A DNA stretch of 64,000 nucleotides from an uncultured Candidatus Peribacteria bacterium (GTDB taxonomy: Bacteria; Patescibacteriota; Gracilibacteria; RBG-16-42-10): contig CAZERA010000001.1 of NCBI GenBank assembly GCA_964514565.1, positions 62,001 through 126,000 on the forward strand, written 5' to 3'. The position numbers are program-made. Each line of letters starts with the position of its first letter. The stretch's first letter is position 1. Positions 51,001 to 60,000 of this stretch are shown in pieces.

Positions 51001-54000
51001 CTAAAAATAGACAAACACTGCGAATAACCTATTTTTATATAGTTATCGCGCTAGATAATTCTTTTATCTAAAAACATTTATTTCTAATTACAAGTCTTAA
51101 TATGACAAATCTCCGTAAAATAGCGGTAGCAATTTCTGCTGCAGCTATGTTCATGGGAGTATTGCCTCAAGCATTAGCTGGTAGCATCTTCTCAGATGTT
51201 GCTGATACTAATGAATTTGCGGTTTATATTCATGATCTTCAAGCACAAGGTATTGTGAGTGGTGTCGGAACTACAGGTATGTATATGCCTCAACGTAATG
51301 TTACTCGTGGTGAAATGATGAAAATGGTCATCAACGCTATGAAAAAGTCTGGAGAAGGTAAGAGTGCTCTTGCTGATGTTCTCAGTACAGCTCCTCTTGC
51401 TGGTGCTCCTCACTTCGAAGATGTGCCAGCTGGTAGCTCATTCTACGATCAAGTAGAAATGGCTTACGCTCTTGGTATCGTCAATGGTCGCCGTGCTCCT
51501 GCTGAAGGAGTACAAGGTTCATTCGGTGTCAACGAACCTGTATTGCGCCAAGAAGGTATGAAGATGGTTGTTGGTGCTTACCGCAAGGTAGCTGCTGACA
51601 CATTCATGCAAGACTTAACTGGTGGTCCATCATTTGATGATGTGTCTGCAAGTTCAGAATTCTATGATTACATCCAAACTGCTTACAATCTCGCTATTGT
51701 AAATGGATACGGTAACAGCAAGTTCGGTCCTATGGATCCTATGCGCCGTGACCAAATGGCGAAGGTTATCTCAAACACTATGAAAGTATTCACTACTGGC
51801 AAACCATTGTCTGTAGGCGTACCTGCTCGTGTCCAAGTAGACAACTCTGATCCACAAATAAAGAACGATGGTACATCTACTGCTACTATCACTTGTACTA
51901 TTGTTGACCGTAATGGTAACCGTGTTGGTGATTGGACAACTCCAGTCAGCTTCACAACTGACGCTGGTACATTGTCTATTGTAGGTGGTAGCGAAGCTGC
52001 TGCAGCTACAAAGACTGTTAGTACTAACGATGGTCGTGGTCAAATCACTTTGATCTCTTCTACTACTGCTGGTACAGCGACTGTTACATGTCGTACTGGT
52101 ACTATGGAAGGTACTACCAAGGTAGAATTCACAGCTGATGCTCCTGGAGTCCGAAACGGCTTCGGTAGTGCTGCTATCGCTGGTGTTGGTGAAATGCATG
52201 TTCGTGCTACTGACAACCATATCGTTGCTAGTCGCCAGACTGCTCCTAGTGGTTCAATTGCTGGTCTTAGTTCAGCCTCAATCACTCCAGTGAGTGGTTT
52301 TGCAACTATTGAATCATTTGTGTACGACGATGCTGGTGATCCATCATGTGGTGACACATTGGTTTACTCTATTCGTTCAGGTAATGGTAGCCTAGAAGCT
52401 GGTCCACTACCACCTACAAGTGCTGCTACTACAGCAGTACGTTCATTGACTCTTCCAGCATCTAGCTGTCTCAATGGTCGTTATGTTGCTTACTTGAACA
52501 TTTTGAACACTCAAAATTCAGGTAACGTAGTAGTACAAGTGCTCGATCGTTCTACAAGCCCATCTCTTATGACTACAGTCAATGTTCAAATTGACTTGGT
52601 AAAACTGGATGCAAAAGTATACGATAACAGCATCTTGACTCGTAACTCAGCTCAAATTGCTGCTACAACAGGTACTGAGCAAAACATTGCTCCAGTAGTC
52701 ATCAAGACTTTGGATGAGAACAACCGTCCTTTCCAAACTGTTAAGGGCTCTGCAGTTGACCAAGTTGAATGTCGTTTAGTGAGTGGTGCTACATCTAGCG
52801 CTCTCTTGGACGGTGTTATCAACAGTGCAACAGGTGTTCGTACTCGTGCAACTACAGTTCAAGCTGACTATATCGAAGGTTCAGCTGGTCTCTACACAGT
52901 AAACGTTATTGCTGGTAGTGCTAGTGGTACTTTGACAGTTGAGTGTCGCGACGTTGATGCAATTGGACAACCTTCAGTTCGCTTCAATGTTAGTGTTCGT
53001 GCTCCTCAAGTTGAAATCTTTGTTTCTGGTGCTCGTGCTCGTGCTGGTGACCTTACAACAGTAATCGGTCGTATCCGTGATGGAAGCAAACCTGTTACTG
53101 GTGAAGAACTACGTCTCCAAATCGATGGTGGCGATGGTGTAGTCGATACTAATGATGGTGGCAGTTATACCTATGCTGATGCAGCACAGAATAGTGCTAC
53201 TATGGATATAATCTGTTACCTCAATGGTACTGTTCCTACTTCATCATCACAGATTACAGGTAATCTCTTGATGGATGGTGCAGCTTTCTTAGGTGCTGTG
53301 AGTGTTGTTCCTTTTGGAACAGTTGGTGGATGTTCTTCAATCTCTGGTGCTGTAGATTCTGGCTGGTATACAGCTAAGGTTTACATGCCATTAGATACAA
53401 CAGAACGTGATCAGACAATCAATCTCCGCGCTACTGATCTTTCTCGTGCTGAACAACCTCAAGGTCAAATTACTGTCGTGTCTACACGTGGTCTTCCAAG
53501 TGAGGCTCGTCAATTGACTGTTATGCCTATGTCACAAGAAGTAGGTATCAACCAAGACATCCCTACTATCATGTTTGTTCGTGATAGCCGTGGTTTCGGT
53601 CTCTCTTGTACTTCTTCTGGTGCTGTTAACCCAGCTAATACCAATGGTGAAACTGGTCCTGATCAATGTAGTGATGCTATGAATGGAGTTGTTCCAACTA
53701 CTACTACTCCTTCAATCGGAATCAACCGCACTCAAGGTGTTAATGGTCTAGTTGGATACTTATCTGTAAATCCTACAACTAGCGAAAACGTATACGTTTA
53801 CAGCCGCGCTGTTCCTCCTGCTGCTGTTAACGATGGTGTTGCCAATGATACAACACAGCGTTATATCGTATCTAACCTTGGTGGTGGAGCATACTTCATG
53901 GTTGCTCGTGCTAAGGATCGTGCTGACCGTGCTGAATGGAGAGTTGAGCTACATGACTCAAGTGGAGTCGAGCTCCAAGCTCCTTTGGTCCAAGTCAACA

Positions 54001-57000: not shown

Positions 57001-60000
57001 CGCCCTCAAAGAATTCCCATTGTCATTCAATTATGCTTTCCCTCGTTTGCACTTAGTGCCTGATGCTGATGCTAATCAAGTAGAAGTAACAGCACAAAGA
57101 TTTCCTCATTTAGAGGGTGGTTATATGTATGAGTTGTGGGCAAAAGATGCTACTACTTCATATAGCCTTGCTCGTTTCAATGTTGCAGGTGGTGTGTTGG
57201 TTAGTGATCGTGAACTTCCAGTTACTACCACTATTGCTTTGCCAGTGCCATATCGCACAGTAAGTAGTTTTGCAGTGACTGTTGAGCCAAAGAACGATGG
57301 TGATATCAATGCATCTCACACTATAGCTGTTCGTGGCCTTCCATCTTCAGGTAGTAGTGCTTTTGATTTAGATTTCCCAGTTGGTTATGGTAATACCAAT
57401 GCAACTGCTCGTATCTATGGTACTGGGCATGATGTATTGAGTGTCAGTTTCGATAATCTTCCTAGCTTAAGTAGTATTGGTTGGCAGTACCAAGCATGGT
57501 ATGTCAAAGATGGTAATGCTGTGAGTGCTGGTTTATTCCAAGGAAATGGTGTAGGTACTATGTTCCGCAGTGGTACTTTGCCAGTAGATTTGTTCACTGT
57601 TCAACAAGTGAAAGTCTCAGTTGAACCAATGCCAGATGATGCTACAGCACCTTCTTTGGTAGTTTGGTCAGCAAGTGTTCCTGGTGCTCCCACTCCTACT
57701 AGTACTGTTGTGGGTGCCGTTAGCAGTGATCCAACTCATGATACTGACCTCTACAAAGGTCTGACTACATCAATGACCACTTCTTCACTTCGTGCTCGTA
57801 CTGTGACTAAGACTGATACTGCTCAGAAAGTAATTATTCAGGCATATGCAGCAGCTCCAGTGGTTGCCGAGAATCAAGATCAAGCAATTGTAGTAAAAGT
57901 ATCTGATCTCAATGGTAAGCCAATCAGTGATCTCAATCTTACTTTTAGTCGTGTTGAAGGTCCAAGTGCAAACTTCAATGATCCTCAAGAGATTGGAAAT
58001 AATTCAGGTATATACATTGGTAGTTATCGCAATAGTGAAGATGTCTCAACCACTGATACAGCTATTGTTCGTATTCAATCTGATGGTCAAAATTCAAGCT
58101 CTTCATCAAGTTCAGTAGTTACTGTGCCTGCTGTTGATGTTCAGTTTACAGTTTCTTCATCAACTGTGATTGGTTCAGCACGTACTATGGAAATCGATGT
58201 TCCTCGTCTCGAGACAACATTTGACGAAAATAATACTAATTCAACTCAAAGTGACGTAATTGTATTGGCTACTGTACTTGATAGTAACCGCAAGGCTGTT
58301 GAGAGTGTATTAAGTAGTGATCTCACCCTTCAGTCACAAAGTACAAATGCTACTGGTTATACTGATAACAATATTAAATATTTCACTTTGGATGATCGTT
58401 TCTTCGGTCTAGATCGTGAAACAAGTAATATTACAGTAAGTAGAACATTCAACGTTCAACTTATTCCTGGTACTTCGGATGATTTTGCTCCGATTACCTC
58501 TGATCAGTACACCTTGCGAGCTAAGTTTATCGCAAGAACAAACTAAGTTTATCTAAGTAGTTACAATCAAGCCGCTTCTCTAGAAACAGAGGGCGGCTTT
58601 TTTGTTGGCTGACTTTTAGCTCACGCGAGAGATGTCTCAACAACAATCTTTTGTTGGGCTGATGAGGTAAGAAGTAAAAGGGAAAAGTGAAGAAGTATAT
58701 AAACAAAGTAAGCAAGTTCAATAGCTACAATCCGCAATTGCGGACCCCAGGCCCATACATTTCTTACCTTTTACTTCTTACTTTTTACCTCCCAAGACTA
58801 CTTGATAAGTAACAGTCTATTCAGTAACGTCTTCCTTTGTAGTATCTCTTACCTCTTAAAAATATATGTCCAATCAAAATAAGCTTTATACTCAGATCTT
58901 GTGTACAACTTTAGTTGCAGTTCTTTTTAATGTCGGTGTCGCTCGTGCAATGGATTATCCTGATTTAGATTATGATCAGGCTTATCTTCCAGGCATCATG
59001 GGGATGACCACTTCTGGAATAGTCCAGGGATATGAGGATGGTACATTTAGACCTGATAGTTATGTTTCTAGAATCGAAGCGCTTAAAATCATCTTGAAGA
59101 GTGCAAGTATTGGGGTCGTACCAATGAGCAGTACTCAATATATCGCGCCAGCAGTTGATAGTTATGGTGTTGTGGTTCAACCAACAGTCAGTCCTTTGAT
59201 GTCTCCATCAATTGCCTTTCCTGATGTCCCATTGGACAGTTGGTATGCTCCCTATGTGAATACAGGTGAGCAAAAAGAAATCATCCATGGATACCCTGAT
59301 GGCATGTTTAGACCTCAGGCGTATGTGAGTCGTGTCGAAGCATATAAGATGCTTTTTAGATCATTTGGTGTGCTGCTTGATGCTCCAGTTGAAGGAGAGG
59401 ATTGGTTCACTCCATACGTCAAATACGCACTTGATCACAATTTAGCTAATTTTGGTGATAATCCTCGATTGGATCTCAGTAACAGTACTGCTCTCATCAC
59501 TCGTGCTGAGTTTACTGATCTCGCTTTCCGTTTACGCAATATCTCAGCCAAGATGCCTGCCTCAAAATTTAGCGAGAGTAGTTATCCCACTATTAGCATT
59601 GATTATAGCGACGCCAATGCTGATTTGTTTGGTGCAACTACAACCAATAAAAAAGTAGCATTAGCTGATCGTCATTACCTGCCTATGAGCATTGATGCCA
59701 AGACCTACGTCTATACAGCAAGAAACTATGCTGAAGCCAAAGCTATCGCACAAGCTAAATTCAAAAAGAGTATCAATTATGATGGTATCAATTTAGCTCA
59801 TGATAATTTTGCTGCCGGAGCGTACGATTTCTCTGTAGCTGTATGGAATAGTCCATTTGAAAAGACTGGCCTTACTTATGCTCAATGGTATGCCATGAAA
59901 GCAACTACAATGTTACAAGAAGGTTACCTCAAAGATAAAGTTCTATAAGCAGTCAAAAGGAAGAGGGTTGAAGACTAAAAAACTTCAACCCTTTTTTATT

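Follow-up and report, generated by a model that had tools for sequence, protein, structure and literature searches.

An S-layer-homology gene cluster and a putative pyruvylated wall-polymer anchor in a Candidatus Peribacteria genome

Genes of the SLH cluster

The window analysed is a stretch of 64,000 nucleotides from the genome of an uncultured Candidatus Peribacteria bacterium (contig CAZERA010000001.1, here C1, positions 62,001 to 126,000); coordinates refer to this window unless a contig is named. Four neighbouring genes on the + strand, at 51102-59948, encode proteins of 1211, 441 or 396, 730 and 360 aa that carry domains of S-layer homology (SLH). Their Pfam SLH scores of 71.8, 60.5, 119.8 and 87.0 bits, respectively, are all far above the cut-off of 20.8 bits, confirming the row of four SLH genes given in a preliminary description of the genome. 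The four ORFs are the same under translation tables 11 and 25 and contain no in-frame TGA; the organism uses the standard code, as under table 11 the ORFs of at least 150 aa span 1.03 Mb of the 1.118 Mb genome. As read from the translations, a signal peptide directly precedes the first SLH repeat in the cluster proteins.

The first gene (51102..54737, + strand; 1211 aa) encodes a signal peptide, three SLH repeats at approximately residues 29-230 and a long all-beta region; a Pfam search gave an Invasin_D3/Ig-like match at residues 249-345. In an AF2 model of low overall confidence (pLDDT 51), residues 215-770 are all-beta with a pLDDT of 60-86, and the C-terminal region appears, with low confidence, as separate beta-sandwich-like units and not as a barrel. 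The protein has a pI of 4.81 and contains 0.83% cysteine, its homologs evolve fast and come from a narrow lineage, and the interval 51095-54764 is covered by contigs from an RNA-library run, which does not in itself prove transcription. A hairpin with a T-run, resembling an intrinsic terminator (54770..54805, + strand), begins 33 nt past the stop codon; its RNA fold reaches -22.5 kcal/mol (z -4.66), and none of 200 shuffles folded as well. The terminator of its own, the acidic pI, the all-beta region and the presence in the RNA library, together with the scarcity of cysteine and the nature of the homologs, single out the product of gene 1 as the strongest candidate for an S-layer-type coat protein of high abundance, which might form a lattice, or for a large adhesin.

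The longest ORF of the second gene (54875..56200, + strand) comprises 441 aa, while the ATG at 55010 (396 aa) is the likely true start, because the signal peptide then falls directly before the first SLH repeat. Of the three SLH repeats of the product, the middle one is degenerate and the other two are clear (the Pfam match comes in two stretches); a C-terminal half follows. The protein has a pI of 5.02 and no cysteine. The third gene (56354..58546, + strand; 730 aa) codes for a signal peptide, three SLH repeats (a Pfam match in three stretches), two RskA_C-like domains (52.2 bits) and a Ser/Thr-rich C-terminal part. Its SLH triplet aligns in register with the SLH trimer of Bacillus anthracis Sap (3pyw, 6bt4 and 9g93; E 1.4e-8 to 1.9e-9). 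The fourth gene (58866..59948, + strand; 360 aa) encodes a signal peptide, an SLH trimer at approximately residues 40-229 and, C-terminally, a small alpha/beta domain, and has 12 full-length orthologs with 51-91% identity, one of which carries the name Candidatus Abawacabacteria. In a model of low overall confidence (pLDDT 56), residues 40-229 of this protein match 6bt4_A, the Sap SLH trimer with a bound pyruvylated SCWP unit, with a Z of 10.9 (rmsd 4.0, 145/165 aligned). The trimer fold of Paenibacillus alvei SpaA/SlhA (PDB 6CWC and others) is likewise recovered, with a Z of 10.7 for SpaA-SLH (6cwc_A), and the unrelated rows after Sap and SpaA reach only Z 6.1 and 4.0. Genes 2-4 would encode accessory wall proteins.

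B. anthracis Sap and EA1 (PDB 3PYW, 6BT4) show the same layout, with an N-terminal signal peptide, then three SLH repeats and a series of beta domains towards the C-terminus, although the anchor found here is only about 15% identical to that of Sap and belongs to a 1.1 Mb CPR bacterium, unlike the Firmicute B. anthracis. The four proteins are predicted to be exported by the Sec pathway, their N-terminal SLH modules forming a three-pronged trimer.

SLH proteins across the genome

Scanning the 1.118 Mb genome in six frames revealed 54 SLH repeat matches, which group into 28 stop-to-stop frames, the same number as the SLH genes counted previously. One further gene of this set lies in the window (10810..12495, + strand) and encodes a peptidoglycan hydrolase of the NlpC/P60 type that bears SLH repeats at its C-terminus (Pfam NLPC_P60 77.6 bits, SLH 112.3 bits; SLH matches at C1:73980-74285). 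The fusions to wall-displayed enzymes and giant proteins that had been named earlier are all present, the partners being S8 subtilase, GH18, NlpC/P60, GDSL lipase, two CAP domains, cupredoxin and DUF11/SdrD giants. The SLH proteins also include three beta-helix proteins and one DUF285 protein, and in several of the 28 nothing in Pfam matches the C-terminal part. Approximately 24 further proteins, including hydrolases, adhesin-like giants and the cupredoxin, would share the anchor of the cluster proteins, and the module would therefore represent a general surface-display platform.

According to published accounts, the combination of SLH and CsaB serves as an outer-membrane tether in diderm Terrabacteria, and the SLH module and its co-occurrence with CsaB are shared with the OmpM/SlpA-type tethers of Thermus, Deinococcus, Synechococcus and Negativicutes. 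The proteins described here could likewise connect an outer membrane to the wall in the manner of OmpM, and the C-terminal parts lacking a Pfam match would be compatible with this. However, none of the 28 SLH proteins has a porin family match in Pfam, the modelled C-terminal region of gene 1 shows no barrel, and Omp85/BamA was not found in the genome by a search that was positive in 7/7 diderm controls. An outer-membrane tether is thus poorly supported and extremely improbable. As no Omp85/BamA was found, which points to a cell lacking an outer membrane, the wall is the available anchor, and the SLH module in this genome would serve wall display, not membrane tethering.

Ligand-contact residues of the SLH repeats

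Most probably the SLH proteins are secreted and then attach, without a covalent bond, to a wall glycopolymer that is pyruvylated, in the manner of Gram-positive bacteria. Their trimers would bind this secondary polymer of the cell's own wall, which would carry pyruvate ketals and a negative charge. The residues with assigned roles in ligand binding (PMC6081394) were surveyed in an alignment of 48 of the 54 repeats. SLH-Gly29, the glycine that flips and binds the pyruvate carboxylate (PMC6081394), is kept in 44/48 repeats, and SLH-Arg43, the arginine of the TRAE motif, in 38/48, with the following Glu in 44/48; the contact residues Gly29 and Arg43 are those of P. alvei SpaA/SlhA. In contrast to P. 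alvei, SLH-Trp13, the tryptophan stacking on the sugar (PMC6081394), is often replaced, with W in only 17/45 aligned repeats, which counts against the proposed reading.

Putative synthesis of the wall glycopolymer

The CsaB-like pyruvyltransferase, TagA/WecG and LCP ligase genes listed in the preliminary description were each found at their positions. The genome encodes a single CsaB-like enzyme (C1:220008-221039), as in B. anthracis. The S_layer_CsaB model is its sole NCBIfam match (E 2.1e-41, model positions 2-297 of 301), with a score of 142.2 bits that lies below the NCBI equivalog cut-off of 213.1 bits. An alignment of 20 sequences shows no variation at R159, H292 and K312, and at least 90% conservation of R290. 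The PEP-site pattern of P. alvei CsaB (R306, H308 and K328; PMC10435577) is thereby kept as R, R-x-H and K, with the same spacing of 20 residues between R-x-H and K. The gene adjoins neither the SLH genes nor tagA, and in its distance from the S-layer genes it differs from csaB of B. anthracis.

The single TagA-family enzyme of the genome, on contig C2, exceeds the superfamily cut-off; it matches only the superfamily model in NCBIfam, a model too broad to specify the donor sugar. A single LCP ligase with an LCP domain over the cut-off is encoded on contig C4. A WecA/TagO-like polyprenyl-phosphate GlcNAc-1-phosphate transferase is encoded in the window (26174..27259, - strand; Pfam Glycos_transf_4, 113 bits), its best NCBIfam match being WecA TIGR02380 (115 bits, short of the cut-off of 326); the other family member of the genome, on C2, is MraY (199.7 versus a cut-off of 192). 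The WecA/TagO-like enzyme is the candidate initiator of the wall glycopolymer. It is adjoined by a second lipid-carrier initiator, a polyprenyl glycosylphosphotransferase of the WbaP/EPS type (27226..28629, - strand; Pfam Bac_transf 210 bits; NCBIfam TIGR03025 366.5 bits, over the 295.55 cut-off), which might also be linked to the SLH ligand.

These enzymes resemble the TagO-TagA-CsaB-MnaA pathway of P. alvei. Synthesis of the polymer would begin on a polyprenyl carrier, with the WecA/TagO-like enzyme as initiator. The TagA-family transferase, together with neighbouring glycosyltransferases, would then extend it, the CsaB-like enzyme would pyruvylate it from PEP, and after its export the LCP ligase would attach it to peptidoglycan.

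To our knowledge, the only characterised SLH ligand draws UDP-ManNAc from a UDP-GlcNAc 2-epimerase (PF02350). This epimerase was not found in the 92.7%-complete genome, unlike in B. anthracis, nor in any of five family genomes (this one and four sampled relatives), and is over the cut-off in only 15/61 class genomes; the textbook route to the ligand therefore lacks a step. In P. alvei UDP-ManNAc is reported to be supplied by MnaA (PMC11464976), which was not found in this genome, and the pyruvylated sugar may therefore differ from that of P. alvei. The earlier statement that the ligand machinery is present thus holds for the CsaB-like, TagA-family and LCP enzymes, with the CsaB score below its cut-off and the epimerase missing.

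The SLH modules might alternatively bind peptidoglycan or another modified or acidic glycan of the cell's own wall, the CsaB-like enzyme pyruvylating an unrelated exopolysaccharide or glycoconjugate. The missing UDP-ManNAc route, the low CsaB score and the unclustered gene fit such a scheme, PF04230 also matches in SLH-less control genomes such as E. coli and B. subtilis, and the SLH modules of Negativicutes are described as binding cadaverine-modified peptidoglycan. Nevertheless, we regard it as unlikely, given the retention of the pyruvate-contacting Gly and Arg in most repeats, the full-length match of the candidate to CsaB alone and its conserved PEP-site pattern.

The proteins might also be directed outwards, the hydrolases and adhesins of an epibiont docking on foreign pyruvylated polymers of a host or prey surface. 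Many of the SLH proteins have a lytic or adhesive character (NlpC/P60, GH18, subtilase, lipase and the DUF11/SdrD giants), and for class relatives an epibiotic or predatory life is described, in which their SLH proteins are suggested to act in host contact. This is improbable, more so than a different ligand in the own wall, as the cell encodes its own CsaB-like, TagA-family, WecA-like and LCP enzymes, the set needed for a self ligand. Moreover, the named hosts of class relatives are Gammaproteobacteria, and a broad survey gives SLH and CsaB as practically absent from Gracilicutes, while housekeeping-type fusions such as cupredoxin better fit self-display.

Distribution in the class and phylum

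The presence of SLH, CsaB-like and TagA sequences was scored by six-frame searches of sampled genomes. In samples independent of the earlier counts, SLH was near-universal in the class (298/301 genomes) but rare elsewhere in the phylum (4/237), which upholds the contrast described before; CsaB-like sequences were enriched in the same direction, with 116/121 class genomes (E<=1e-10) versus 17/237 elsewhere. The joint near-universality of both in the class favours the pyruvylated polymer over a ligand not made by CsaB. TagA/WecG does not mark the class: it is phylum-wide, occurring in 182/237 non-class genomes, a count that includes one genome flagged as unpublished.

Among the named control genomes, SLH and CsaB over the cut-off coincide fully, both being present in the same four. 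The coupling is loose at its edges: five of the 121 class genomes have SLH and no CsaB-like match at E<=1e-10, and the three SLH-negative class genomes still show weak partial CsaB-like matches. Outside the class, three of the four SLH-positive genomes have no CsaB-like match at 1e-10, two of these having none at 1e-3 either, and 16 of the 17 genomes with a CsaB-like match (16/237) lack SLH, as would be expected if the CsaB-like enzyme served another glycan. The term 'Gracilibacteria-specific', used for this system previously, applies only inside the phylum; beyond it, SLH and CsaB are widespread in Terrabacteria according to the broad survey. The same survey states that they were lost in CPR, with which the 298/301 class genomes carrying SLH contrast.

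The SLH surface system of the class is not wholly new and has been mentioned in print before. A review reports an S-layer for some class species, a single sentence of the literature refers to 'S-layer genes' of Peribacteria, and SLH genes, 8-10 per MAG, are described in Absconditicoccaceae of the same class (Ca. Absconditicoccus praedator and the 'S. methylophilicida' MAGs), where a role of the S-layer in host contact is proposed; the available parts of these Absconditicoccaceae descriptions make no mention of CsaB or pyruvylation. The sampled class comprises two kinds of lineage, of which the standard-code ones (Peregrinibacteria/Peribacteria by record titles) have rich SLH sets. In the TGA-recoded families the SLH repeat matches number only 1-14, and those to CsaB are weak. 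Unlike the TGA-recoded Absconditicoccaceae, the lineage studied here uses the standard code and carries 28 SLH genes.

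Organisation of the four SLH genes

Four genes whose products carry S-layer homology (SLH) domains follow one another head to tail on the plus strand of the genome of an uncultured Candidatus Peribacteria bacterium, the assembly of which comprises 1,117,677 bases in 7 contigs and is rated 92.66% complete. The window corresponds to 62001-126000 on its contig C1. Gene 1 (51102-54737, +) encodes 1211 aa, gene 2 (54875-56200, +) 441 aa in its longest ORF, gene 3 (56354-58546, +) 730 aa and gene 4 (58866-59948, +) 360 aa. Translation tables 11 and 25 give the same ORFs, with no in-frame TGA, and the code of the genome is the standard one, with table 11 ORFs of at least 150 aa spanning 1.03 Mb. 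In the translations, each N-terminus runs from basic to hydrophobic residues and ends in an Ala-x-Ala motif just ahead of the first 'FSD' of the SLH domain; for gene 2 this signal-peptide layout is valid only if translation starts at ATG 55010, 45 codons inside the longest ORF.

The flanks of the four genes are ordinary: YceG/MltG lies upstream, and the opposite strand downstream holds RecJ and a PpiC-SecDF fusion. The latter is a SecD/SecF protein (61703-63982, -) with an N-terminal PpiC-type domain (Rotamase_3, residues 2-106), followed by SecDF_P1_head and SecD_SecF_C; it is unusual for an export motor to be built together with a foldase of its own. Gene 1 is preceded by a non-coding spacer of 523 nt (50579-51101), which is long for a compact genome and shows no promoter-like excess. 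A consensus scan of 50400-60100 gave no signal: it counted 17 promoter-like and 9 terminator-like sites, where 23.0 and 6.2 were expected. At Rfam gathering thresholds one tRNA was the sole match in the window, and none fell in the spacer.

The four genes are conserved (about 64-75% DNA identity): three congeners have them, and two further genera of the family have them in part. One ortholog of gene 4 carries the name Candidatus Abawacabacteria. Contigs from two DNA runs labelled as wastewater and activated-sludge metagenomes cover 26 and 29 of the 30 bins between 44500 and 64000, and many of these pieces are at least 99% alike; since one of the runs may come from the source sample, they do not count as independent support.

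Structure of the SLH modules and ligand-contact residues

With Pfam PF00395 all four proteins score 60.5-119.8 bits, well over its curated cut-off of 20.8. Gene 3 has three Pfam SLH stretches, and all three repeats align to the SLH trimer of Bacillus anthracis Sap (E 1.4e-8 to 1.9e-9). Pfam marks two stretches each in genes 1 and 2, where a divergent middle repeat was seen by eye; to judge from sequence, these two proteins probably also form a three-repeat SLH trimer. The model of gene 4 was built from 13 sequences and has a pLDDT of 56 overall, the SLH region being also low; its residues 40-229 nevertheless superimpose on 6bt4_A, the Sap SLH domain with the pyruvylated wall unit (Z 10.9, rmsd 4.0 Å, 145 of 165 residues aligned), and on 6cwc_A, the SpaA SLH domain (Z 10.7), with an aligned span of 145-146 residues for the two. 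The next matches of the structural search were at Z 6.1, to another S-layer protein, and then 4.0.

According to the available text of PMC6081394, the ligand is contacted by SLH-Gly29 and by SLH-Arg43, part of the TRAE motif. Among 48 of the 54 SLH repeats of the genome, six partial ones being excluded, the glycine is present in 44, the arginine in 38 and the glutamate following it in 44; therefore both residues contacting the pyruvate carboxylate are kept. Gene 3 retains glycine and arginine in all three repeats, and the arginine is absent from gene 2's first repeat. The aromatic platform appears variable: at SLH-Trp13, the residue that packs against the ring of the sugar, tryptophan was found in 17 of 45 aligned repeats, and genes 1 and 3 have phenylalanine or tyrosine near this position, in a stretch where the alignment is uncertain.

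Outside the SLH modules, the C-terminal parts of the four proteins have no paralog among the 28 SLH proteins of the genome. Pfam recognises two RskA_C-like domains in gene 3. For the small C-terminal domain of gene 4 (about residues 245-355) the best structural match had a Z of at most 2.7 and a protein-atlas search gave no usable match, which does not by itself prove a new fold. Genes 2-4 remain wall proteins of unassigned activity.

SLH proteins encoded by the genome

A six-frame scan of the genome revealed 54 SLH repeats in 28 frames, exactly the number of SLH genes counted in the preliminary description. All the fusion partners it had listed for these proteins were recovered by Pfam on the other 24 frames, which additionally include three beta-helix proteins and one DUF285 protein fused to SLH domains. 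The SLH module is N-terminal in about half of the proteins and C-terminal in about half.

An OmpM-type outer-membrane tether joins SLH to a porin barrel, by fusion or by pairing, and presupposes Omp85/BamA in the cell. No match to Omp85/BamA was found in the genome, and Pfam detected no porin family on any of the 28 SLH proteins; an outer-membrane tether role is therefore unlikely.

The window also contains four giant or otherwise odd ORFs of surface type. They encode a protein of 1910 aa without a Pfam match at E<=1e-6 (16674-22406, +), one of 1684 aa with a single Big_13 match (31951-37005, -), a 1230-aa beta-helix/PKD/TSP3 protein (22525-26217, +) and a protein with a lamin-tail domain and cohesin (8576-10072, +).

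The CsaB-like pyruvyltransferase

The candidate enzyme for pyruvylation of the SLH ligand is encoded by the sole PS_pyruv_trans gene of the genome, on contig C1 at 220008-221039, which matches Pfam PF04230 over its full length with 101.9 bits against a gathering threshold of 25.3. Its sole NCBIfam match is S_layer_CsaB (TIGR03609; E 2.1e-41, model positions 2-297 of 301), at 142.2 bits, below the NCBI equivalog cut-off of 213.1. This cut-off is reached in just 2 of 121 genomes of the class Gracilibacteria (in the sense of GTDB).

An alignment of 20 sequences, comprising that of the window's genome, 16 from the class and three from the rest of the phylum, showed R159, D160, H292 and K312 to be invariant and R290 to be conserved in at least 90%. 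PEP is bound in the Paenibacillus alvei enzyme by R148, R306, H308 and K328, as described in the available text of PMC10435577. The P. alvei sequence was not part of the alignment, and the correspondence was mapped by motif and spacing: the R-x-H motif and the distance of 20 residues from H to K match those of R306, H308 and K328. A search of the PDB by sequence returned nothing meaningful, the best match being an unrelated enzyme at E 0.5.

Relatives of the CsaB-like protein were gathered from a 5-sequence alignment with two N-terminal patterns that bias the catch toward the class; the titles of the records name Candidatus Peregrinibacteria, Peribacteria and Gracilibacteria. In a FastTree phylogeny of 82 sequences, 8 of the 10 labelled as non-CPR (seven Acidobacteriota and one haloarchaeon) stood apart from 73 others, on a branch with only 88% local support in a tree with several long branches, including that of the window's own sequence. 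The other two of these ten were one with an uninformative title and one nested in the class on a contig titled Oceanicoccus. The latter, an 11.6-kb contig of a gammaproteobacterial metagenome-assembled genome (Oceanicoccus sp.) with a CsaB-like gene within the class cluster, may reflect mis-binning or transfer.

The CsaB-like gene adjoins a gene for a bacterial alpha-2-macroglobulin of 1972 aa (Big_5, MG2, A2M and bMG10 domains) at C1:221129-227044 (L027:11130-17045, +). Its other neighbours, on the opposite side, encode a protein with an SH3 domain and one of PG_binding/3D-domain type.

The wall-polymer pathway and the supply of ManNAc

A WecA/TagO-like initiator of family GT4 is encoded at 26174-27259 (-); the other GT4 enzyme of the genome is MraY. 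The gene adjoins that of a WbaP/EPS-type polyprenyl glycosylphosphotransferase, so that a pair of adjoining lipid-carrier initiators (26174-28629, -) is found next to dnaN. The TagA-family gene, which passes the superfamily model only, is the first of a glycan cluster with a GT2 enzyme, two methyltransferases and three unassigned proteins, as well as a GT1 gene in the opposing orientation. A few kilobases from this cluster, a pair of genes annotated as '23S rRNA intervening sequence protein' (PF05635; L028:1048-1473, -, and L028:6309-6650, -) flanks a stretch from UPRTase to secA. The LCP ligase gene adjoins ABC-2 transporter genes.

UDP-GlcNAc 2-epimerase (PF02350) is the source of UDP-ManNAc, which is required for the only characterised SLH ligand. 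The gene set that would accompany CsaB is represented by the WecA/TagO-like and TagA-family genes, while PF02350 was found neither in the 92.66% complete genome of the window nor in four sampled relatives from its family (0 of 5). In the class, PF02350 is over the cut-off in just 15 of 61 genomes, though nearly all genomes there carry TagA-family and CsaB-like genes. Since no ManNAc supply was found, the question arises which sugar is pyruvylated: either the pyruvylated sugar is a different one here, or the sugar is acquired by another route.

Distribution in the Gracilibacteria and evolutionary implications

The presence of SLH proteins in the class is real and the phyletic contrast strong. 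The counts come from six-frame searches of samples, and the genome of the window is counted with each group of which it is a member; the phylum sample comprised 251 genomes of Patescibacteriota (CPR), 14 from the class and 237 from other classes. SLH domains were found in 298 of 301 genomes of the class (251 of 253 high-quality genomes; 187 of 189 genera) against 4 of 237 in the rest of the phylum, which bears out the contrast drawn in the preliminary description. CsaB-like proteins (TIGR03609, E<=1e-10) were detected in 116 of 121 class genomes and in 17 of 237 others. All 14 class genomes of the phylum sample have both, as does only one of the 237 outside the class. Among the control genomes, the four with SLH domains are the same four with CsaB over the cut-off. 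TagA/WecG does not mark the class: it occurs in 14 of 14 class genomes and also in 182 of 237 from the rest of the phylum, a count that includes one genome flagged as unpublished (G447). The combination of SLH and CsaB gives a simple genomic marker that sets the class apart from the rest of the phylum.

The co-occurrence of SLH and CsaB is loose outside the class and in the TGA-recoded family f13. Families f13, f23, f30, f31 and part of f26 have many in-frame TGA codons within the CsaB match and therefore represent recoded lineages; their genomes have 1-14 SLH repeat matches and CsaB-like matches that are weak and often partial. Standard-code families of the class have at least 23 SLH repeat matches and CsaB scores of 100-216 bits, f10 being one such family with weak CsaB matches.

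To our knowledge, the biochemistry of CPR/Patescibacteria envelopes is almost unknown. The mechanism suggested by the gene content is the known anchoring of SLH proteins to a pyruvylated polymer, textbook biology of Gram-positive bacteria now met in a CPR class. SLH genes were previously noted for part of this class: the available text on metagenome-assembled genomes of Absconditicoccaceae gives 8-10 SLH genes each, 'as in A. praedator'. Given the textbook mechanism and these earlier records of SLH genes, the finding is moderately surprising. A literature search, made in a collection with few of the subscription journals, found no link of Gracilibacteria or Peregrinibacteria to CsaB or pyruvylation; according to the accessible part of a review, GTDB has shifted the names Peregrinibacteria, Peribacteria and Gracilibacteria about.

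A broad survey of outer-membrane tethers, as far as the available text of the preprint goes, regards SLH/CsaB as ancestral in Terrabacteria and lost in the clade of Chloroflexi, CPR and Dormibacteraeota, with 15 CPR genomes in its reference tree; its Supplementary Data Sheet 1 may list CPR genomes with SLH or CsaB. The near-universal presence of both in one large CPR class refines this scenario of loss in CPR. A more far-reaching proposal, speculative and rather unlikely to hold in its entirety, would be that the class kept the ancestral Terrabacterial SLH/CsaB module after outer-membrane loss, or regained it at its root, and made it the main platform for surface display, with an S-layer and dozens of SLH-armed hydrolases and adhesins on a polymer pyruvylated at a sugar other than ManNAc; the lytic surface would then be a tool for feeding on other cells. 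Such a sugar is proposed because most members of the class lack a detected UDP-GlcNAc 2-epimerase, and, if true, it would make a chemically new SLH ligand. Anchoring of the known kind, for its part, predicts ketal-pyruvate in the wall, SLH-dependent display of about 28 proteins and a role of gene 1 as the coat protein. Recombinant SLH trimers could provide a label or enrichment handle for uncultured cells of the class.

Gene 1 as a candidate S-layer protein

S-layer proteins are typically acidic, poor in cysteine and fast-evolving. Gene 1 encodes a protein with a pI of 4.81 and 0.83% cysteine, and its non-SLH region has nine homologs only, at 49-79% identity; these traits fit an S-layer protein because such proteins typically share them. 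In S-layer proteins of the Sap/SbsB/SpaA type an N-terminal SLH trimer precedes a series of beta-sandwich domains. In gene 1 an Ig-like domain was recognised by Pfam at residues 249-345, and the model is all-beta after the anchor (residues 215-770 at pLDDT 60-86), with an overall pLDDT of just 51. A strong hairpin followed by a T-run lies 33 nt past the stop codon (-22.5 kcal/mol, z -4.66); the consensus terminator scan missed it because of its loop limit. Taken as a coat (S-layer) protein, gene 1 is a tentative candidate, the odds falling somewhat short of even.

Foldseek searches with the model of gene 1 returned only generic arrays of beta-domains (macroglobulins, complement and the Ig-like domains of PrgB) at TM <=0.15 and rmsd >17 Å, and no fold was assigned.

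In one RNA-library run (X3), contigs span gene 1 (51095-54764) in at least eight pieces, 13 of the 14 placed pieces of the run being at least 95% alike. They place the sequence of gene 1 in an RNA library, which is no proof of transcription, and contigs cannot rank expression. A true S-layer protein would assemble into a two-dimensional lattice and be one of the cell's most abundant proteins; these contigs are the one hint in that direction. The same run has no contigs at 44500-51009, and genes 2-4 are almost bare of them, but missing cover does not count as evidence. A second run (X23) yielded short pieces only, with 90-95% likeness and mostly diverging beyond, and was not used.

The assemblies of relatives tend to break within gene 1. 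In one congener (G019) the 3' two-thirds of the gene occurs in three copies at contig ends (C3:1-2668, C5:1-2721 and C11:31143-33815), with 70-72% DNA identity. Together with the assembly breaks, these copies suggest paralogs or strain variants of the candidate coat protein.
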